Translations under genes and position numbers: made by a program | In this document: positions 9,532 to 51,760 of the stretch, piece after piece | How positions within the stretch are numbered: the stretch's first letter is position 1 | Layout of the letters: the number at the start of each line of letters is the position of its first letter | Origin: a virus | Reading direction: 5' to 3' (one strand) | IMG/VR virus record: IMGVR_UViG_3300009702_000026 | Location: 1,718 to 65,717 of that record | DNA: 64,000 bases | Notes under the pieces: generated by a model | Databases searched by the model: none | What the model was told of the DNA's origin: nothing | Seen by the model: only the letters and a program-made list of their open reading frames with translations

Positions 9532-10185
9532 ATGGGCGACCTGGTAGCTATGCAGCGCAAGATCAACGTCTCGGTCAGTCGGTTCGGCCGGGTCTTCGCG
9601 TTGGAGTGGAAGGCGGGTCGTACCCCGCGCATGTGTGAGCCCGCAGCCACGCTGACAGTGAACGGGGAGTTCCTCGCATGGTGTGCGATCGCGTTCCACG
9701 ATCCCGACGACTGGAGCGAGGTGTACGTCTCGCTCTCCGATGACTACCGGCTACTCCACCCCAACGACCTGGGGATCTCCGAGTCGACCGAAGACGACAT
9801 GGACTTTCACTTCCTTGCGGAAGCGGAGGACTATGTGATGGGGCTGATCAACGAGGCGCTCGCACAAAAGCTCTCAGACACCGCTCGGGAGCCTGGGGCC
9901 GAAGACGAGGAGCCGAGCGAGGAGAATGACCCGCTCGCGCTGACGCCCCTCGACCGGGGCAAGCGGGTGGTGAGCGTCTGGCACAACCATGGCGAGCGGA
10001 AGGACCAACTTCCCGACCTCATCTCGATTGAGCTTTACGACGCCCTCCAGTGTGTGGGGTTGGCGCTTGGAGACGTGCTCGATGCGGACCAGGGTGTTCC
10101 CCGAGACCAGTGCGGCGCGCATGTGCGCGAGACGGTCGCGGAGGCCTTGGAGACGTGGCGCGCGGCGGACCTAGAATCGGATTGA
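9532..10185 (+). CDS. acidic hypothetical protein
   Basis: 217-aa ORF in gene-sized gap. Confidence 0.65.
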   Translation: MGDLVAMQRKINVSVSRFGRVFALEWKAGRTPRMCEPAATLTVNGEFLAWCAIAFHDPDDWSEVYVSLSDDYRLLHPNDLGISESTEDDMDFHFLAEAEDYVMGLINEALAQKLSDTAREPGAEDEEPSEENDPLALTPLDRGKRVVSVWHNHGERKDQLPDLISIELYDALQCVGLALGDVLDADQGVPRDQCGAHVRETVAEALETWRAADLESD

Positions 10186-10246
10186 CTATCCGGGGGCTTG
10201 TTGATACGGTTTCGAGCCAAGCCGGATGAGATCTGGCTAGAAGGAG
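10182..10246 (+). promoter_or_regulatory. sigma70-like promoter + hairpin + SD
   Basis: TTGACT(10182)-17-TACGGT(10205); hairpin AGCCGGAT/ATCTGGCT 10220-10238; AAGGAG 10241-10246. Confidence 0.65.
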
Positions 10247-14564: not shown

Positions 14565-14593
14565 TTGAGCCCTAAGGGTCTTCATGTTACAGT
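14565..14593 (+). promoter_or_regulatory. sigma70-like promoter
   Basis: TTGAGC(14565)-17-TACAGT(14588) with TG extension. Confidence 0.6.
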
Positions 14594-23516: not shown

Positions 23517-24527
23517 ATGAGACCTGTCGCCGTTGCGATCGCCGCGCTTCTCTGCGCGTGTCAGCCCATCGAGTCAGCCGACCCCGTTGAGTCCGAGTTC
23601 CTGCCCGAGTCCGGGAGTCCGCGCGACGGGTCTCCCAACGAGGACGAAAACTTCCTCACCGAAGAGGCCGAAGCCGGAGAGCCCCTTCCCGCGGCTGCGA
23701 CCATCCCGGCCAACATCGCTGCGAGCACTGCCGGCGCCCGGCGCACCCAACGCCTTCGCGAGGGTCGTCTCCCAGTTCCTACCGATCGGGACGAGCTGCG
23801 AGCGCGCACCATCGAGGCGTTACTCCGTGTTGCGATCAGCGAGGAGGGCTGGGCGAACGAGATCGGCATGAAGGCGATATGGCAGGTGGCCCGGGCTACC
23901 CGCGGTTGCCTCGACGAGAACAACGTCCACGTCTCCTGTCGTGACCCCCGTTCAACCCGTCGTCGGGCGCCTCCCCTTGCAGGCCTCTGGCGCAACTCCC
24001 CGAGAGCGACTGGAAATCTCCCGCCCGTGGGTCGCCGTGGGGCGTGGGTCCGTTCGATCACTGTCGACTGCGAGCAGCCCACCGAGTGGCCCAAGCGAAC
24101 GCGCCGAGGGTCCCCCTACGCGCAGTGGGTCAGCTACCAGGGCCACTGCGAGGACCTGGTGCGAGCCGCCGAGGCGATCGTGGATGGCAAGGACCACATC
24201 CAGGCGTGCCCTTCAGGTTCGCGCCCGATCGCGTGGGGATGCGATCCCGAGCGCCGACGAGCCATCCGCGAGGTGCTCGGCCGCAACCGCCCGGTCAACG
24301 GCTGCAACGACTCCCCGATCGCGAGGCGTCGTCAACTCCAGCGGCTCGACTGCGGGGAGACGGAGAACGCCTACTGGTGCCGACCGGGGACTCCCCACTG
24401 CGGCACCCTACCAGCGTCGGAACGAGCGCTTCGGAGCCTCGACCCTGAGGAGGGGGGCAGCGAAGATCGTGCGGAGGGCGAAAACTCCACGGATACGGGC
24501 TTGACTCAGGAGGTCATGTCGTCGTAA
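23517..24527 (+). CDS. Cys-rich lipoprotein, possible SleB-like cell-wall hydrolase
   Basis: Signal peptide with lipobox LCAC; LLRVAISEEG...MKAIWQVARA resembles the SleB/hydrolase_2 N-terminal helix pair. Confidence 0.55.
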   Translation: MRPVAVAIAALLCACQPIESADPVESEFLPESGSPRDGSPNEDENFLTEEAEAGEPLPAAATIPANIAASTAGARRTQRLREGRLPVPTDRDELRARTIEALLRVAISEEGWANEIGMKAIWQVARATRGCLDENNVHVSCRDPRSTRRRAPPLAGLWRNSPRATGNLPPVGRRGAWVRSITVDCEQPTEWPKRTRRGSPYAQWVSYQGHCEDLVRAAEAIVDGKDHIQACPSGSRPIAWGCDPERRRAIREVLGRNRPVNGCNDSPIARRRQLQRLDCGETENAYWCRPGTPHCGTLPASERALRSLDPEEGGSEDRAEGENSTDTGLTQEVMSS

Positions 24528-24530
24528 CAA
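24501..24530 (+). promoter_or_regulatory. sigma70-like promoter for the replication operon
   Basis: TTGACT(24501)-18-TAACAA(24525). Confidence 0.45.
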
Positions 24531-24552
24531 CATCGTCCATCCAGTTCGACCA

Positions 24553-24784
24553 GGTGCCCACCCCCGGCGAACCGAAGACTCTCAACATGCGTCATTTACT
24601 GTGCTACGATTCTGACCTCACGGGCCTTCTAGGGGTTCCGGTACGAGGACCTGAGAGCTTGGCCTAAGGGCCTGCCCGCCAAGGAGATCGACGTCACAGC
24701 GTCGGTCACCGCATGTTGGGAGTCCTCGATTCACCGGGTGGGCACCCCTAGAAGGCCCGCTCTTTATGCGGGCCGGGAGGCCCG
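24553..24784 (+). ncRNA. putative structured RNA / leader upstream of the replication initiator
   Basis: Long-range complementarity: 24553-24563 with 24736-24746, 24577-24591 with 24710-24724, 24599-24603 with 24695-24699, and a crossing 14-bp pair 24622-24635 with 24745-24758. Confidence 0.5.
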
Positions 24785-26034
24785 TATTGAAACCGTCTGA
24801 CGAGAAAACTCGAAGCGAGCGCCAGCGCTTCATCAACCCCTGGCGCCGGTACGTCGGATCGTTCGTTCCGAACTGGTTGCTGTGCCGCCACGAGGTATCC
24901 GCACAGGCGAAGTTGCTCTACGCCCGCCTCGCTCAGTACGCGGGGCAGAAGGGCGTCGCATACCCCCGGCAAGACACCCTCGCCCGAGAGCTGGGCAGTC
25001 TCTCGGAGCGCACTGTGAGGCGCTACGTGGCTGAGCTGCGCGAGCACGGGCTCATTCACGTCGAAGACCGGCGGAACAAGAACTTCCCCAACAAGTACAA
25101 GTTTTTGGACCATCCCTGGCAGCACGAGGGCGATGTCATCGATGACGATGAATCACCGATGAGTCCCCCGGATGAGCACAGGACAGAACTGTCCTCAGGT
25201 ACAGGGGGACCACAGGACAAGGTTGTCCTATCCGGACAGGACAAGGTTGTCCTCTCTAGAAGAGACTCACTAGAAGAGAATAACTCACAAGAAGAGAATC
25301 ACACTGCCGGAGCTACCCGCTCCGGCCGTATTCGGGCGAGAAAACCCCCGAAGCCTCCTCCGCGCCCGAAGGTCTTCGAGGACACTCCCTCCCTCGGGAG
25401 TGAAGGAGAGGACTCCTCGGGCGAAGACCCAGGAGAAGGGGCCGCAAAACCGGCCGCTCGTCCGAAAGCTCGGAGGCGCCTGACGAAGTCCCAGAAGATC
25501 GCTGAGGAAGCCGCGGAGAGGGCCAAGGCGCAGGTCTCGGCCAACACGCAGAAGCGCTTGAAGGCTGCGGAGGTGCAGGAGCAGCGGCAGAAGAACCTGG
25601 CAAGCAAGGGTCCGAGGGATCCGGGAGTGCGGGCCTTGGAACAGCTCTGGTACGAGCTGATGGAGAGGGACCTACCATCGTTGACTATCGCCCGCTGGGG
25701 CGGGAAGGAGCGCGGTCAAGCCCGGAAGTTGCAGGACAAATACGGCGTGCAGATCGCTCTCGATGCGCTACGCTATGTGGTAGCAAACTGGAACGGAATC
25801 AACGAGCGGATCTTCAAAGGGCGGGCGAGCCACCCCACGATCGGGATGGTTTTGAAGCTCCACGAGACGCTGGTCATCGAGGCGCAGAAGTGGTCACAGC
25901 ACGAGCAAACGATCTCCGAATGGGAGGCCTGGACTAGGGAGAACCCCTACTCGCTAAACGCACCTGGAGATCTCGATGAGAGGTATCAGCGGGCGATGAA
26001 GGAGCTAGAGGCCCTCGGAATCGTAGGGTCCTGA
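24766..26034 (+). CDS. replication initiator protein (N-terminal winged HTH, lambda O-like architecture)
   Basis: AKLLYARL...AYPRQDTLARELGSLSERTVRRYVAELREHGLI HTH; followed by DnaC-like, DnaB, DnaG; alternative TTG start 24787 with GGGAGG SD. Confidence 0.8.
   Translation: MRAGRPVLKPSDEKTRSERQRFINPWRRYVGSFVPNWLLCRHEVSAQAKLLYARLAQYAGQKGVAYPRQDTLARELGSLSERTVRRYVAELREHGLIHVEDRRNKNFPNKYKFLDHPWQHEGDVIDDDESPMSPPDEHRTELSSGTGGPQDKVVLSGQDKVVLSRRDSLEENNSQEENHTAGATRSGRIRARKPPKPPPRPKVFEDTPSLGSEGEDSSGEDPGEGAAKPAARPKARRRLTKSQKIAEEAAERAKAQVSANTQKRLKAAEVQEQRQKNLASKGPRDPGVRALEQLWYELMERDLPSLTIARWGGKERGQARKLQDKYGVQIALDALRYVVANWNGINERIFKGRASHPTIGMVLKLHETLVIEAQKWSQHEQTISEWEAWTRENPYSLNAPGDLDERYQRAMKELEALGIVGS
25178..25253. 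repeat. three palindromic iteron-like repeats (putative origin) inside the initiator gene
   Basis: ACAGGACA-N4-TGTCCT at 25178-25195, 25212-25229, 25236-25253, followed by an A/G-rich lower-GC tract 25256-25300. Confidence 0.7.
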
Positions 26035-28054: not shown

Positions 28055-28521
28055 TGGCTTCTGGTGACATTCCGATTCTGGTGAGGCATGTGGCGCTCGC
28101 GATCTACAAGAGCGGGGACGTAAGGGGTGCCAGCACCCTGGAGAAGGCGATCGGGGCGTTCGACATCGCGAGGCACCGACTCACCGAGTATGGCTTCCTC
28201 AGGAAGGGCTCTGAGAAGGGCAAGCCCTCCAAGATCAAGATGACGGTGAAGGGTCACAAGGCGGACGCCAAGCACCGGAGCGAGGTGGGGTCGAAGACCA
28301 AGACGAAGGAGTGGGACAAACTCTATTCGTTGATCTCGGAGGCGGAAGAGGAACCGGTCGACAGCGGTGCGATGAACGAGGTGAGCGGTCTCCCCGCGGC
28401 GTCGAGCAAGCCGGGACCGAAGGCGCGGAAGAAGCAGGATCAGGTACGACGGGCGCGGGTAGCGAAGAGACGGACGACGAGAGCGCGCGTGCCACGCGCG
28501 AAGAAGGCGAAGCGAGGATGA
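28054..28521 (+). CDS. basic hypothetical protein
   Basis: 155 aa, TAATG coupling, K/R-rich C-terminus. Confidence 0.65.
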   Translation: MASGDIPILVRHVALAIYKSGDVRGASTLEKAIGAFDIARHRLTEYGFLRKGSEKGKPSKIKMTVKGHKADAKHRSEVGSKTKTKEWDKLYSLISEAEEEPVDSGAMNEVSGLPAASSKPGPKARKKQDQVRRARVAKRRTTRARVPRAKKAKRG

Positions 28522-29571
28522 ATGGACGCGGGAAAGGCTCAGGAGTTCTTGCAGCTCATCGGGTGCAGGAAGATCAGCGTAGGTGCGGGCTGGGTGAGGT
28601 CGACTTGCCCCTTGGAGTACAGACACTCAGGAGGGCATGACAAGCAACCCTCATTCGCGATCAGCATCCGATCGGGTGACAGTAGCGGTTGCCGCTGTCA
28701 GGGCTGCGGGTACGCCACGGAGATCCTCCACCAGCTCCTTTGGAAACTCTCCATCGAGCGCGGGAAGGACGTAGAGCGAGCGTCGGCGTTCCTCCTGAAG
28801 CACGACCAGATCGGAGTGGACTGGCTAGAGGCCAACGCCGACCGCAAGCCGGATGACAAGGACCTGATGGGCCGAGTCGTCCACGCGCGTACATATGTGA
28901 GCAGCTTCGACCGGCACAGCAACTTCGTCCATCCGAACGACGAGCCCCAACCTGAGGTCCCGGACGAGGTGCTCCAGAGGATGATCAAGGATCTGACCGA
29001 CCACGTGCGGGAGTACCTCAAGCGGACACCCGACAAGATCAACGGGGTCGAAGGTCGGGCCCTGGACGAGCTGACGATCGCGGAGTGGGAACTAGGGTGG
29101 CACCGGTTGAAGGGCCGGATCTGCATCCCGATTCGAGACGAAACAGGAAAGCTCGTCTCGGTCTCGGGGCGGAAGTTCGATGAGTCGGGATGGGGCCCGA
29201 AGTACCTGCACTCCCCGTTCAAGCGGAACCGCGTCCTCTTCGGCTCGCATCGGCTGAACAAGGGGATCCGCAAGGGCTACTTGCTGGAGGGTTTTTTCCA
29301 AACCATCCGCCTCGCGCAGCTCGGATACCCGAACCCCCTCGGGCGTATGGGCTCGCACCTCTCGAAGCAACAGGCGGACCTTCTGGTGGAGTGGTTCGAT
29401 CATTTGGTCATCGTCCCGGATGGAGACAAGGCCGGATACGAGTCCGCGGAAATCGCCCGCCTGATGCTGGTGGATCGGATTGAGCGGATCGACGTTGCGG
29501 AGATGCCAAGAGGCAAGGACGCGGACAGCCTAAAGCCCTTTCAGTTGCGGGATATCCTCGATCCTATTTGA
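28522..29571 (+). CDS. dnaG: DnaG-like primase (Zn-binding + Toprim)
   Basis: CPLE..H...D..PSF...C.C.GCG Zn domain; PKYLHSP, LLEGFF, PDGDKAG, KDADS Toprim. Confidence 0.88.
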   Translation: MDAGKAQEFLQLIGCRKISVGAGWVRSTCPLEYRHSGGHDKQPSFAISIRSGDSSGCRCQGCGYATEILHQLLWKLSIERGKDVERASAFLLKHDQIGVDWLEANADRKPDDKDLMGRVVHARTYVSSFDRHSNFVHPNDEPQPEVPDEVLQRMIKDLTDHVREYLKRTPDKINGVEGRALDELTIAEWELGWHRLKGRICIPIRDETGKLVSVSGRKFDESGWGPKYLHSPFKRNRVLFGSHRLNKGIRKGYLLEGFFQTIRLAQLGYPNPLGRMGSHLSKQQADLLVEWFDHLVIVPDGDKAGYESAEIARLMLVDRIERIDVAEMPRGKDADSLKPFQLRDILDPI

Positions 29572-48019: not shown

Positions 48020-48313
48020 GTGCCTTCGGCTCTAGGTGTGCTTGCGTGTTGTGACGCTGACGAGACAGGGCTGGCGATTGTCCCCTCGGTCCGCGTGAGC
48101 GCCCGTGAGTTCGCCTTGATTCTCGCAGCCAACGGTGTGAGTGTCCGCCCTCTCGGACAGGGGTCGGCACAGGTGTGCGATTCCCAGGGTCGAAGGGCCC
48201 GCGTCGGAGGCGTAGTGATCATCGCGGCCAGGTCGTCGGAGGTCAGAAAGCTGAAGACGCACGCCCGGTTGTGCGGGGTCACGGTGATCCCTGTGCGTGT
48301 GGAGAGTCCTTGA
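48020..48313 (+). CDS. hypothetical protein
   Basis: 97-aa ORF abutting previous stop; GTG start. Confidence 0.45.
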   Translation: MPSALGVLACCDADETGLAIVPSVRVSAREFALILAANGVSVRPLGQGSAQVCDSQGRRARVGGVVIIAARSSEVRKLKTHARLCGVTVIPVRVESP

Positions 48314-48379
48314 TCGACGACCGATCTGTGGTACGGTGGGGCACACGTTGAGCGGTGACTCCGCTCATGGAACTAGGAG
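48310..48379 (+). promoter_or_regulatory. sigma70-like promoter + hairpin + SD
   Basis: TTGATC(48310)-16-TACGGT(48332) after TGG; hairpin TGAGCGG/CCGCTCA 48349-48367; AGGAG 48375-48379. Confidence 0.65.
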
Positions 48380-48909: not shown

Positions 48910-48955
48910 AGGACAAACCTGTCCTTTGAAGACCCTCTAGGCTCCGAGGTAGGAT
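48910..48955 (+). promoter_or_regulatory. AGGACA-N4-TGTCCT palindrome abutting a promoter-like TTGAAG-18-TAGGAT
   Basis: Palindrome 48910-48925 matches the iteron consensus; GTG of polA at 48962. Confidence 0.55.
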
Positions 48956-48961
48956 TCATTC

Positions 48962-51760
48962 GTGCGCTACGAGTACGTCACGGATGCGTCCGCCCTCGGA
49001 GCCGTCGCGAACCGCGTCGAGCAGGCGAAGCTGATCGGCTTCGACATCGAGACCACGAGCCTCAACCCGCGCGACGGGAAGATCAGGTTGGTCCAGCTCG
49101 CGATGGGGGATCCGGCAGATCCGGACATCTACGTCATCGACCTCTGGCAGACGGAAGGGCTCGGACCCGTGCTCGATGCGATGAGGGCGACGAAAGCTCT
49201 CTTCATCATCCACAACGCGAAGTTCGAGCAGAAGTGGTTCTGGTGGTTCCACCGCTTCGAGTTCTGGCCGGTCTTCTGCACGTTCCGCGCGAGTGCGATC
49301 CTCTACAACGGCCGGCGAGAGCTGAGGCACAATCTTGACTCGGTCATCGTTCGTGAGCTGCAAGAGCAGCCCTCGAATGTGGGGCAGGGGGGCTCCGACT
49401 GGACCAGGCCGAACCTCGGGAGCGAGCAGCTCGACTACGCGGCCGAGGACGTTCTTCGCCTCATGCGTCTCTACAAGGCGCTGAGGCAGAAACTCGTCCA
49501 GTACGGACTGCTCAAGTGCGCATTGATCGAGTTCGGAGTGATCCTCCCAGAATGTCGCACGGAGCTGAACGGCTTCCACCTCGCGAAGGACAAGTGGCTC
49601 GCGCTCGCCGAGGCCAACCTGCTCAACTCCAAGCGGCTCAAGGAGGAGCTGCTCGCGGAGCTGCCGCACCCGATGGGGCAGATGGCGCTGCCGGGGATGA
49701 CCCCCGGATGGAACCTGGGGTCGCCGAAGCAGATGCTCGGGTCGCTCCATCGGATCCGAGGTCTCCATGAGCTGGAGGACACGAAGGAGATCACGCTCGC
49801 CATGGAGGCGGGGCGCTTCCCGATCATCAAGAAGATCCTGGAGTGGCGCGGCTACAACCAGCGGGTGAAGACCTTCGGTCCAAACTACCTCCGGTGGGTC
49901 CGATCAGACACCGGCAGGATCCACACCGAGTACTACGCGCTCCTCGCGGCCGGACGCTACAGCTCGTCGAAGCCGAACCTGCAACAGATCCCTCGCGATG
50001 CCGACTACCGCGACTGCTTCACGGCGCCCCCTGGGCGAGTTTTGATCCTCGCCGACTACTCGGGCATCGAGATGCGCATCGTCGCGGAGATCAGCAACGA
50101 CCCTGAACTCATCAAGGTCTTCACCAGTGGGGACGATGCCCACTACGCGACGGCGGCTATCATCTTGGAGAAGCCCGTCTCCGAGGTGACCAAGGCCGAG
50201 CGGCAGTTCGCGAAGCCAGTGAACTTCGGACTGATCTACGGGATGATGCCGGCCAAGCTCGTCCTCTACGCGCAGTCCGGCTACGGCGTCGCGATGAGCC
50301 TCGGCCAGGCAGAGCGCTACCACAAGCGCTACTTCGACCGCTTCCGCGGAGTCGCCCGCTGGCACAACAAGGTGTCGCGGGACGGCCGGCGGCAAGGCAT
50401 CAGCCGCACCCTCTCCGGGCGTCTGCGCTGGCTCGACCCCCAGAAGAGCTGGAACGAGTTCAAGAACTGCTTGGACGCCAAGACTGAAGCCCTGACGCTA
50501 CGTGGGTGGGTTCCGGGGATGGAGCTTTCAAACGACGACGTGTTGTTGACGAAGAACATCGACACAGGTCGATTGGAGTGGCAAAAGGCGACCGAGATCA
50601 AGAAGTGGCCAGACTATGAAGGGCCCTTGATCGAGTTCCGAAGTCGATCTTTCAACGCCGTGTCGACGCCGGACCACCGCTGGATGGTCACGGAGAAGCA
50701 CTCAGGGCGGGCGGTGTGTCGGACGACGGAGCGGGTCTCCTTACACGGGGACGACCGAATCCACCGCACGGGGGACTATGTCGGGCCGGAGCGCTCGGAG
50801 TTCACGGATGCCGAAGTGGAGTTGGTGGGCTGGCTCGTGACGGACGGCTCAATCGTCCCTGTCCGTGATCGTGGTGGCAGGCCTAAGGTCGTGCTGTCCC
50901 AATCGGAGCGTGCGAAACCTGAGAACGTGGCTCGAATCGACGCCGCCCTAAATGCGATGGGGTGGGGTCATTCCCGCCATGTTGCGAGGCGCACTGAGTG
51001 TGTGACCTGGCATCTCCACAAGGCGGAGTCCGCCCGTCTTGCTGCTATGTTTCCAGGGCGTCTTCTCTCGGGAGTTTTTCTTAGGCAGCTCTCTAGGGAT
51101 CAGATCAACCTCTTGTTCGAGACCATGGTTCGAGGGGATGGGCATCGTGAGGAAGGCGGGAAGACGACTTTCTACGCGGGCACGAAGGAGGCTGCGGATG
51201 CGTTTGGGATGGTGGCTACGCTAGCGGGGTTTGCCACGAACACCCGGGTGCGCGATATGAGCCAGTACAGGCCGAAGTCGGACAAACTCCTGAATGTTCC
51301 GAAGATGGGTTTGATCTGGGTCGTGACGGTGTTGGCCCGGACGACCGCTCAAGTACTTGAAACGCAACGCAGGGACTTCCGTTCCAAGCAGCCGATCTGG
51401 TGCCCTATCGTGCCCAACACATTTTTCGTGGCGCGGCGTGAAGGTCAGGTGTTCGTCACCGGTAACACTCCAGTGCAGGGCACGGGCGCGGACGCGCTCA
51501 AGACCTCGATGCGGCTCGTCCAAGATCGGATCGACAAGACCTTCGGAGTTTCCGCCGCCGAGACGATGGACGGGCCGGTGGCGATCTGCCACCACGTGCA
51601 TGACGAGATCATATTGGAGTGCGACGAGGACGAGGAGATGAAGCGAGAGGCCTCGAAGCAGCTCCACGATGGGATGCACGAGGGCATGAGCCGGTTCCTC
51701 GACAAGGTCCCCGTGGTCGTTGACCCCTCGTCGGGTAGAAGCTGGGCGGAAGCAAAATGA
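48962..51760 (+). CDS. polA: family A DNA polymerase (3'-5' exo + pol) with intein
   Basis: FDIET, HNAKFE, YAAED exo motifs; PNLQQIP, ADYSGIEMRI, AK.VNFGLIYG, N/TPVQGTGAD, HDEII. Confidence 0.95.
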   Translation: MRYEYVTDASALGAVANRVEQAKLIGFDIETTSLNPRDGKIRLVQLAMGDPADPDIYVIDLWQTEGLGPVLDAMRATKALFIIHNAKFEQKWFWWFHRFEFWPVFCTFRASAILYNGRRELRHNLDSVIVRELQEQPSNVGQGGSDWTRPNLGSEQLDYAAEDVLRLMRLYKALRQKLVQYGLLKCALIEFGVILPECRTELNGFHLAKDKWLALAEANLLNSKRLKEELLAELPHPMGQMALPGMTPGWNLGSPKQMLGSLHRIRGLHELEDTKEITLAMEAGRFPIIKKILEWRGYNQRVKTFGPNYLRWVRSDTGRIHTEYYALLAAGRYSSSKPNLQQIPRDADYRDCFTAPPGRVLILADYSGIEMRIVAEISNDPELIKVFTSGDDAHYATAAIILEKPVSEVTKAERQFAKPVNFGLIYGMMPAKLVLYAQSGYGVAMSLGQAERYHKRYFDRFRGVARWHNKVSRDGRRQGISRTLSGRLRWLDPQKSWNEFKNCLDAKTEALTLRGWVPGMELSNDDVLLTKNIDTGRLEWQKATEIKKWPDYEGPLIEFRSRSFNAVSTPDHRWMVTEKHSGRAVCRTTERVSLHGDDRIHRTGDYVGPERSEFTDAEVELVGWLVTDGSIVPVRDRGGRPKVVLSQSERAKPENVARIDAALNAMGWGHSRHVARRTECVTWHLHKAESARLAAMFPGRLLSGVFLRQLSRDQINLLFETMVRGDGHREEGGKTTFYAGTKEAADAFGMVATLAGFATNTRVRDMSQYRPKSDKLLNVPKMGLIWVVTVLARTTAQVLETQRRDFRSKQPIWCPIVPNTFFVARREGQVFVTGNTPVQGTGADALKTSMRLVQDRIDKTFGVSAAETMDGPVAICHHVHDEIILECDEDEEMKREASKQLHDGMHEGMSRFLDKVPVVVDPSSGRSWAEAK
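50468..51466 (+). mobile_element. intein with LAGLIDADG-type homing endonuclease in DNA polymerase
   Basis: 333 aa CLDAKTEAL...STPDHRW...RREGQVFVTGN, then Thr; LVGWLVTDGS and LFETMVRGDG motifs; removal restores EFKN-TPVQGT. Confidence 0.9.

Follow-up and report, generated by a model that had tools for sequence, protein, structure and literature searches.

The DNA analysed here is a stretch of 64,000 nucleotides (nt), referred to as the window, which makes up most of the 68-kb viral record IMGVR_UViG_3300009702_000026 in IMG/VR; all positions given below without a contig name are positions in the window. CheckV puts the completeness of the 68-kb record at 42%, and the same phage, which is uncultured and has a genome of approximately 180 kb, is also found on a 181-kb assembly contig (L006). 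The G+C content of the window is approximately 63%, and every long open reading frame (ORF) lies on the plus strand. The subject of this report is a gene-free gap of 259 nt (24528-24786) that lies directly 5' of the gene encoding the replication initiator. On its 5' side the gap is bordered by a plus strand gene (23517-24527) for a 336 amino acid (aa) protein rich in Cys and Trp, and on its 3' side by a replication module consisting of an HTH_36/lambda-O-like initiator, a loader, a DnaB helicase and a DnaG-type primase. An independent gene call starts the 415-aa initiator at the TTG at 24787, after GGGAGG, in agreement with a preliminary description of this locus that had been made from the DNA sequence alone, and the relatives have a Shine-Dalgarno (SD) sequence and an ATG or TTG at the same place. 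We consider it very likely that the gap holds a conserved structured element, and we propose that this element may be a leader RNA able to take up two alternative folds.

Relatives of this phage were reached through protein searches followed by contig look-ups, which gave three independent sequences: the window (the same as L006 but for two single nucleotide polymorphisms, SNPs), L004, and L009 (the same as L010). The element is present in all three of these diverged phages, whose initiators share 47-53% protein identity, and it always lies between the upstream gene, whose product resembles SleB, and the HTH_36 initiator module. The element is the best-conserved part of a 13-kb region aligned between L006 and L004: it has 80% nucleotide identity, versus 48-77% for the neighboring genes with the exception of one 265-aa gene (80%), and it holds both the longest (50 nt) and the third-longest (29 nt) runs of identical sequence. 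About 12 other phages have no such element following their SleB-like gene. As RNA, the plus strand of 24528-24790 has a predicted folding energy of -121.5 kcal/mol versus -96.8 +/- 5.3 kcal/mol for dinucleotide shuffles (z -4.66), none of which folded as well, so that the folding noted in the preliminary description holds up against this control. The minus strand of the same region gave -131.8 kcal/mol (z -5.62).

A first fold (fold I) was derived with RNAalifold and explicit pair counts over the three phages. Base pairing is kept in 93.6% of its cells, and 12 pairs have changed on both sides, as compared to 0-2 in controls in which the partners were slid by 1-3 columns; these compensatory changes supply the covariation that the preliminary description had named as a check on the structure. 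The outermost part is a rod, P1, of 35 pairs, with 96% of cells paired and seven double-changed pairs (for example GAA/UUC to ACG/CGU). Two of its segments had been picked out previously and are indeed there, one of 11 perfect base pairs (24553-63/24736-46) and one of 15 with a single G-U (24577-91/24710-24). In the predicted fold P1 closes a four-way junction with the hairpins P2, P3 and P4, while a separate hairpin, P5, abuts the initiator SD. P2 encloses an invariant segment, B, as a large loop. The loop of P3 is UAAG in the window and a GNRA tetraloop (GUAA, GCAA) in the two relatives. P4 keeps a U.G pair in all three phages, which on the minus strand would be an A.C mismatch, and its loop, UCACAG, carries a segment a' (24695-99) that is complementary to segment a in the junction. 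The a-a' pairing covaries, being CUGUG/CACAG in the window, CUGUGCU/AGCAUAG in L004 and UAUGCUAG/CUAGCAUA in L009 (G-C to G.U to A-U), and it links the junction to the P4 loop.

The inner pairings that had been proposed earlier fared unevenly. CUGUG/CACAG does pair (24599-603 with 24695-99), about 1 nt away from where it had been placed. CGAU/AUCG is also present, but it is not conserved and competes with the covarying hairpin P4 (24686-93/24700-07). The open central bubble of a 6S-type RNA is replaced by the four-way junction of hairpins. An H-type pseudoknot made of P4 and the junction segment was considered and rejected; with a linker of 0 nt after a', the geometry suggests that the full P4 and the a-a' pairing probably do not coexist. 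The hairpin that had been seen at the 3' end, P5, occurs in all three phages with changes in length and loop. It is not followed by a U-tract, and no terminator was found on the plus strand of the element.

The preliminary description also contained a 14-bp complement (24622-35/24745-58), which it took to cross the rod. This complement is present and is in fact a perfect match of 16 bp (24621-36/24744-59), a length reached by none of 1000 dinucleotide shuffles, and it forms the core of a longer helix of 29 bp (helix II), which continues with 24637-42/24733-38 and 24644-50/24722-28. The B region that provides the 5' strand lies within the 50-nt identical run. Since the 3' strand uses P1b and the 5' arm of P5, a fold containing helix II (fold II) excludes both the rod and P5. 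A simultaneous pseudoknot, in which B pairs with its complement B' while the full rod is kept, appears sterically implausible on geometric grounds, because B' directly abuts the base of the 35-bp rod; what had been read as a crossing helix is better taken as an alternative fold, with a 3' strand that abuts and overlaps the rod base. The variation within P1b is divided in a corresponding manner. None of the 15 positions shared with helix II varies among the three phages, whereas 8 of the 20 positions used by P1 only vary and covary (Fisher p = 0.0056), which is the pattern expected if the shared nucleotides must satisfy two partners. The two SNPs that separate the window from L006 are both within the element and neither is at a helix II pair: A24643 (C elsewhere) is the single unpaired base inside helix II, and A24656 (G elsewhere) gives an A.C mismatch in P3. 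When the RNA is folded at full length, forced fold II lies 9.5-17 kcal/mol above fold I, the structure of minimum free energy (MFE); for an RNA with its 5' end beyond P1a, the MFE structure is instead fold II. The features of the element and its surroundings are listed in Table 1.

Table 1. Features of the element and of the adjoining start of the initiator gene, in window positions
Feature	Position	Strand	Remarks
P1a, 5' strand of rod (helix I)	24553-24591	+	pairs with 24710-46
Small ORF, 25 codons	24588-24665	+	AUG in P1a, stop in P3 loop; present in three phages (24-27 aa)
Junction segment a (CUGUGCU)	24599-24610	+	complementary to P4 loop; overlaps candidate extended -10 TGCTACGAT (24602-10)
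P2, CCUC (24616-19) with GAGG (24645-48)	24616-24648	+	from RNAalifold; 92% of cells paired, no double changes
B region, 5' strand of helix II	24621-24650	+	29 bp with 24722-59; includes the 14-mer 24622-35 of the preliminary description
P3, bipartite hairpin	24650-24684	+	3 double-changed pairs
P4 hairpin, GAUCGACG with CGUCGGUC	24686-24707	+	2 double-changed pairs
P1b, 3' strand of rod	24710-24746	+	24722-28, 24734-38 and 24744-46 shared with helix II
3' strand of helix II	24722-24759	+	pairs with B; includes B' 24745-58 of the preliminary description
P5 hairpin	24754-24774	+	directly 5' of the SD; in all three phages, with length and loop changes
SD GGGAGG (24775-80) and TTG start (24787) of initiator	24775-24789	+	gene call
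Three AGGACA-N4-TGTCCT palindromic iterons	25180-25253	+	inside initiator coding sequence; motif matches

Several measures bear on the strand that would carry the function. The RNAalifold consensus of the core is -112.4 kcal/mol on the plus strand versus -102.9 kcal/mol on the minus strand, and that of the inner domain is -29.4 versus -21.2 kcal/mol. Folded singly, two of the three phage sequences are 12-16 kcal/mol more stable as the plus strand, and the ratio of G.U to A.C combinations (16:5) favors the plus strand as well. The supporting context is that all genes of the window lie on the strand favored by the element. Taken as a whole these data suggest that the element probably acts as plus strand RNA.

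A competing explanation places the function at the level of DNA, either as an accessory structure of the origin, for example a cruciform or a hairpin for single-strand initiation beside an iteron-type origin, or as a set of protein sites around a promoter for the replication module. Inside the initiator coding sequence, approximately 400 bp downstream of the gap, there are three palindromic iterons with the motif AGGACA-N4-TGTCCT, which has four matches in the window versus 0.08 expected. The fourth (48910-48925) adjoins a promoter-like site before the gene at 48962, and the motif is also found within the initiator genes of relatives (L004:6452-6467 and L005:13-28). Judging from these motif matches, the replication origin is probably formed by the iterons inside the initiator gene, in the style of lambda and RepC, and with an origin of this type inside the gene the gap need not be the origin. 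A search for a direct-repeat family within 24528-24786 gave nothing beyond chance two-copy matches, and the gap itself is thus not an iteron array. A role in DNA would nevertheless agree with the proximity of the element to the iterons and to the initiator, helicase and primase genes; a large inverted repeat lies beside the iterons in the IncQ oriV. P1 is a nearly perfect Watson-Crick palindrome, both strands fold well, matched changes in the arms of a DNA palindrome can mimic covariation, and the invariant 16-mers could be recognition sites. Against this, the covariation of P3 and P4 is accompanied by conserved U.G pairs and by GNRA loops, which are meaningful on the plus strand only, the arms of the palindrome are 118 nt apart, which is unfavorable for cruciform extrusion, and two alternative helices that share one 3' strand are typical of RNA attenuators rather than of binding sites. 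A relative that has the same replication module also lacks the element. An operator repeated elsewhere in the genome was rejected, as the 16-mer has no further copy in the 68-kb record, and so was a miniature inverted-repeat transposable element or dispersed palindromic repeat, the element being single copy in that record and syntenic in the relatives. On balance we regard a DNA-level function as unlikely.

Between P1a and B there is a candidate extended -10 promoter element, TGCTACGAT in the window, with TGCTACATT and TGCTAGTCT at the same place in L004 and L009, respectively, so that TGnTAnnnT is kept in all three phages. It resembles a phage promoter family, TTGAnn-N14-TGnTAC(G/A)GT, with three convincing members at 10182-10210, 14565-14593 and 48310-48337, each having an SD and a start codon within approximately 45 nt. 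TGnTAnnnT occurs at 11 plus strand sites in the window versus about 21 expected, and at four minus strand sites. A transcript starting near 24617 would begin 4 nt before helix II. P1a, which such a transcript would lack, contains a -35-like TCAACA (24582-87) that is weak, an SD-like GAAGA and an AUG at 24588. This AUG opens a small ORF that ends in the P3 loop; its N-terminal half is unconserved, both of its ends are frame-shifted between the phages, and the part that is conserved shows no change at any synonymous site, a pattern which indicates that the ORF is probably incidental. For the same reasons, and given that the ORF ends about 120 nt before the TTG at 24787, leader-peptide attenuation was rejected; the distance also means that no translational coupling to the initiator is possible.

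The effect that either fold would have on the ribosome-binding site is less direct than the preliminary description had supposed. The SD (24775-80) and the TTG (24787) are outside the rod in all three phages, P1 and the junction ending at 24746. The apical segment that was thought to mask the SD does match it over 8 bp (ACGGGCCU, 24620-27, with AGGCCCGU, 24778-85), but in this phage only and in neither relative. Sequestration of B' frees the 3' arm of P5, which then pairs with the SD/start region both in L004 and in the window (AUGCGGGCC with GGCCCGUAU). A consistent occlusion of the SD in fold II was looked for in ensemble accessibility and was not seen. Since the apical match is specific to the window and the computed shift in accessibility is inconsistent, direct masking of the SD, whether by the apical segment or by a pseudoknot, is not established. 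The safest statement is that the predicted folds differ in the presence of P5 next to the ribosome-binding site.

On the basis of these comparisons we propose that a cis-acting plus strand leader RNA of approximately 24553-24774 serves the replication block of initiator, loader, DnaB and primase. In fold II, B (24621-50) would form the 29-bp helix with 24722-59, a stretch that takes in the 3' half of the rod strand as well as the 5' arm of P5, so that the rod and P5 dissolve, and the choice between fold I and fold II would alter the structure around the ribosome-binding site and through it the output of initiator. The choice might be set by whether P1a is present in the transcript, that is, by read-through from upstream versus a start near 24617, or by whatever occupies P1a. 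We infer that read-through RNA would adopt fold I and promoter-initiated RNA fold II, and the bistable leader is thus possibly linked to the internal extended -10 promoter. The preliminary description had envisaged a switch acting on initiator expression, and its outline survives in a conserved, covarying structure with a mutually exclusive second helix that removes the SD-abutting hairpin; only the masking of the SD does not. We give about even weight to the proposal that the element is a cis-regulatory leader RNA which is bistable and controls initiator expression through its two states.

Several results weigh against this proposal. The number of independent sequences is small (three), and all 29 pairs of helix II are identical in them, leaving that helix with no covariation. 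P1, nearly pure Watson-Crick with one G-U and one A-C, cannot by itself separate an RNA from a DNA palindrome because it is almost free of G-U pairs, and for the window alone the minus strand folds slightly better. The -35 of the candidate promoter is weak and a simple sigma-70 scan found no promoter. The pairing of the P5 arm with the start region has no clear match in L009, and the computed SD-to-start accessibility changes inconsistently from fold I to fold II in the three phages (0.40 to 0.30, 0.36 to 0.36 and 0.42 to 0.52). A more distant relative with the same replication module (initiator 37% identical; L024:3633-8476) does not have the element. A search of sequencing runs returned one DNA run, from a subsurface metagenome, and zero RNA runs with the sequence.

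The rod could alternatively be an RNase III-type site that splits the upstream message from the replication message, with the other helices protecting the resulting ends and no true switch being involved. A rod of approximately 35 bp with small bulges lies exactly between two modules of a one-strand polycistronic genome, a position that resembles the intergenic RNase III sites of T7 and the lambda N leader, and a 5' end made at approximately 24617 would lie about 4 nt from the start of helix II. Processing or stability would, however, leave the invariance of 50 nt at the apex, the alternative helix of 29 bp and the partition of the rod positions unexplained, and RNase III sites usually tolerate sequence change. 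We judge this explanation improbable.

Searches for known families and for homologues were negative. No Rfam family (4227 searched) matched anywhere in the window at gathering score, including riboswitch, T-box, 6S and countertranscript RNA (ctRNA) models; for 24450-24850 at E <= 10 just chance-level matches to CRISPR-DR20, Trp_leader and snoU82P were obtained, all on the minus strand. No homologue of the element was found by blastn against the INPHARED phages or by scanning viral, metagenome and genome contigs for exact patterns from three conserved blocks; two 18-mer matches, in metagenome-assembled genomes of Planctomycetota and Flavobacteriaceae, were rejected as chance, since their surroundings do not match. 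Protein-guided locus searches of viral and metagenome contigs with the initiator, the upstream protein and DnaB found nothing, tblastn against cultured phages gave distant HTH or DnaB matches only, and nhmmer was negative for all 31 loci. No tRNA or tmRNA was found in the region.

These searches bear most directly on the possibility that the element is an independent small RNA acting in trans. One form of it, a 6S-like decoy of RNA polymerase, had been put forward in the preliminary description; the other is a minus strand countertranscript of the kind known from repABC and IncI plasmids. The size (approximately 200-240 nt) and the rod shape would fit such an RNA, P5 on the minus strand is followed by UUCU, and plasmid initiators of the type to which this initiator shows a weak RP-C resemblance are controlled by countertranscripts (PMC3155836). 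The Rfam searches gave no 6S match and, on either strand, no ctRNA match at gathering score or at E <= 10, and a 6S-like decoy is further contradicted by the paired four-way junction in place of an open bubble, the lack of a plus strand terminator and the lack of any sign of a separate gene. A countertranscript is disfavored by the absence of a TANNNT -10 hexamer on the minus strand of 24760-24960, by the poorer minus strand consensus fold, and by the absence of a conserved sigma-70-like minus strand promoter in the three phages, a scan whose reach does not extend to non-canonical promoters. An independent trans-acting RNA of either form seems very improbable.

The genes on either side of the gap were characterized further. 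The upstream 336-aa protein had no Pfam or PHROG match, and Foldseek returned no match in the PDB. Its AlphaFold model has a confident core (predicted local distance difference test, pLDDT, above 90 for 202 residues), which resembles the catalytic domain of SleB lytic transglycosylases (VIA-align Z 6.8 and 6.3; next best 3.8). In many other phages a homologue of this SleB-like protein is encoded directly after an RNase HII gene. The SleB-like fold is unrelated to replication, and therefore the gap is a module boundary. Within the last codons of this gene (24501-24527), the three phages share TTGAC, which includes a Leu codon (TTG) that is rare, and TCGTCGTAACA, although the residues between them differ; this stretch could be a second promoter-like signal (TTGACT-N18-TAACAA, with the final T missing) or the 5' edge of the element. 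Downstream, the initiator has a clear match to HTH_36 and a weak resemblance to the RepC N terminus (PF03428, RP-C, 19.3 bits, under the 24.4 cut-off), and the loader has a homologue in a relative that matches IstB_IS21. The second-longest identical run of the 13-kb alignment, 48 nt shared by the window phage and L004, lies further along at 28501-28548 (L006:9715-9762), where it spans the ATGA stop/start overlap of a 155-aa ORF and the primase gene. This run may serve as a signal for translational coupling or reflect a conserved feature of the coding sequence. In L024 the start of the initiator gene is overlapped by a gene of T5orf172/MUG113 type (GIY-YIG-like), and DnaB has a LAGLIDADG intein.

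The closest functional analogues of the element are plasmid rep-gene leaders, none of which is homologous to it, and several defining features of each are lacking here. The inc-alpha region between repB and repC of repABC plasmids forms a large mRNA stem-loop which, together with a countertranscript, controls RepC, and the origin lies inside repC (PMC3155836). As in that system, a conserved non-coding region directly precedes an initiator gene, the large leader stem-loop leaves the SD and start codon outside the rod, and iterons, the candidate origin, are found inside the coding sequence of an initiator that is weakly RP-C-like. The two differ in that the element has no sequence or Rfam match and no minus strand countertranscript promoter was found for it; its alternative partner is an internal segment (B) of the same RNA, it is approximately four times as long as the ctRNA target, and the replicon is a phage of about 180 kb. 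The leaders of IncI1 and IncB plasmids (ColIb-P9 repZ, pMU720 repA) combine a leader peptide, a long-range pseudoknot and an antisense Inc RNA (PMC8053102). Like these, the element has a hairpin loop whose sequence is complementary to a stretch just before the ribosome-binding site of the rep gene, its leader contains a small ORF, and its target would be a replication initiator. Unlike them, it has a complement of 16-29 bp that competes with a 35-bp rod in place of a short pseudoknot, its small ORF stops some 120 nt short of the initiator start, the search for an antisense promoter was negative, and there is no homology.

Other comparisons are with RNAs that regulate by alternative pairing or in trans. 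In pT181 repC and inc18 repR, attenuation is driven by a countertranscript, and classical attenuators and riboswitch expression platforms work on related lines. The element is similar in that an upstream pre-emptor (P1a) sequesters P1b and so decides the fate of a hairpin before the gene; it differs in its unusually long helices and in P5, which lacks a U-tract, so that the output is probably not intrinsic termination. The 6S RNA (RF00013) is likewise a non-coding element of approximately 200 nt whose ends pair into a long rod, but the present element has no model match, a four-way junction at its center and no terminator of its own, and it abuts a ribosome-binding site. The c4 RNA of phage P1 and the CI RNA of satellite P4 are antisense RNAs that come from the same transcript as their targets. 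They are comparable in that a structured RNA upstream displays a loop (here B, enclosed by P2) that is a perfect complement of B', a site further along the same transcript and in front of the regulated gene. Their targets are immunity genes and not a replication initiator, there is no homology, and the processing into a separate RNA that occurs in P1 and P4 would for this rod be hypothetical only.

This last comparison touches on the possibility that the rod domain is more than a passive leader, either through a B loop that acts in trans or through a junction core that binds a ligand or protein and so gates phage DNA replication. In the former case the rod may be cut from the transcript and its exposed B loop may act on B' of other initiator mRNAs; by analogy with P1 c4 and P4 CI, the phage may then possess a self-encoded antisense dosage sensor of genome copy number that controls replication. 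In the latter case the invariant junction core may bind a protein or a small molecule which tips the equilibrium of the two folds, and this may constitute a new riboswitch-like class. Both forms are, in our estimation, distinctly improbable.

The sequence family is new, and the kind of regulation to which it would belong is familiar. That folded leader RNAs control the synthesis of replication initiators is textbook knowledge for plasmids; to our knowledge such control is poorly documented for large lytic phages. The practical weight of the present case is limited, consisting as it does of three metagenomic sequences that are known here from DNA alone. It is nonetheless a clean and conserved example from an uncultured lineage, with two long competing helices and a pattern of invariant and covarying positions that itself points to dual pairing. 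If the proposed bistable leader is correct, the element would represent a new RNA family and would provide a testable case of RNA-level control of the timing or dosage of phage replication.

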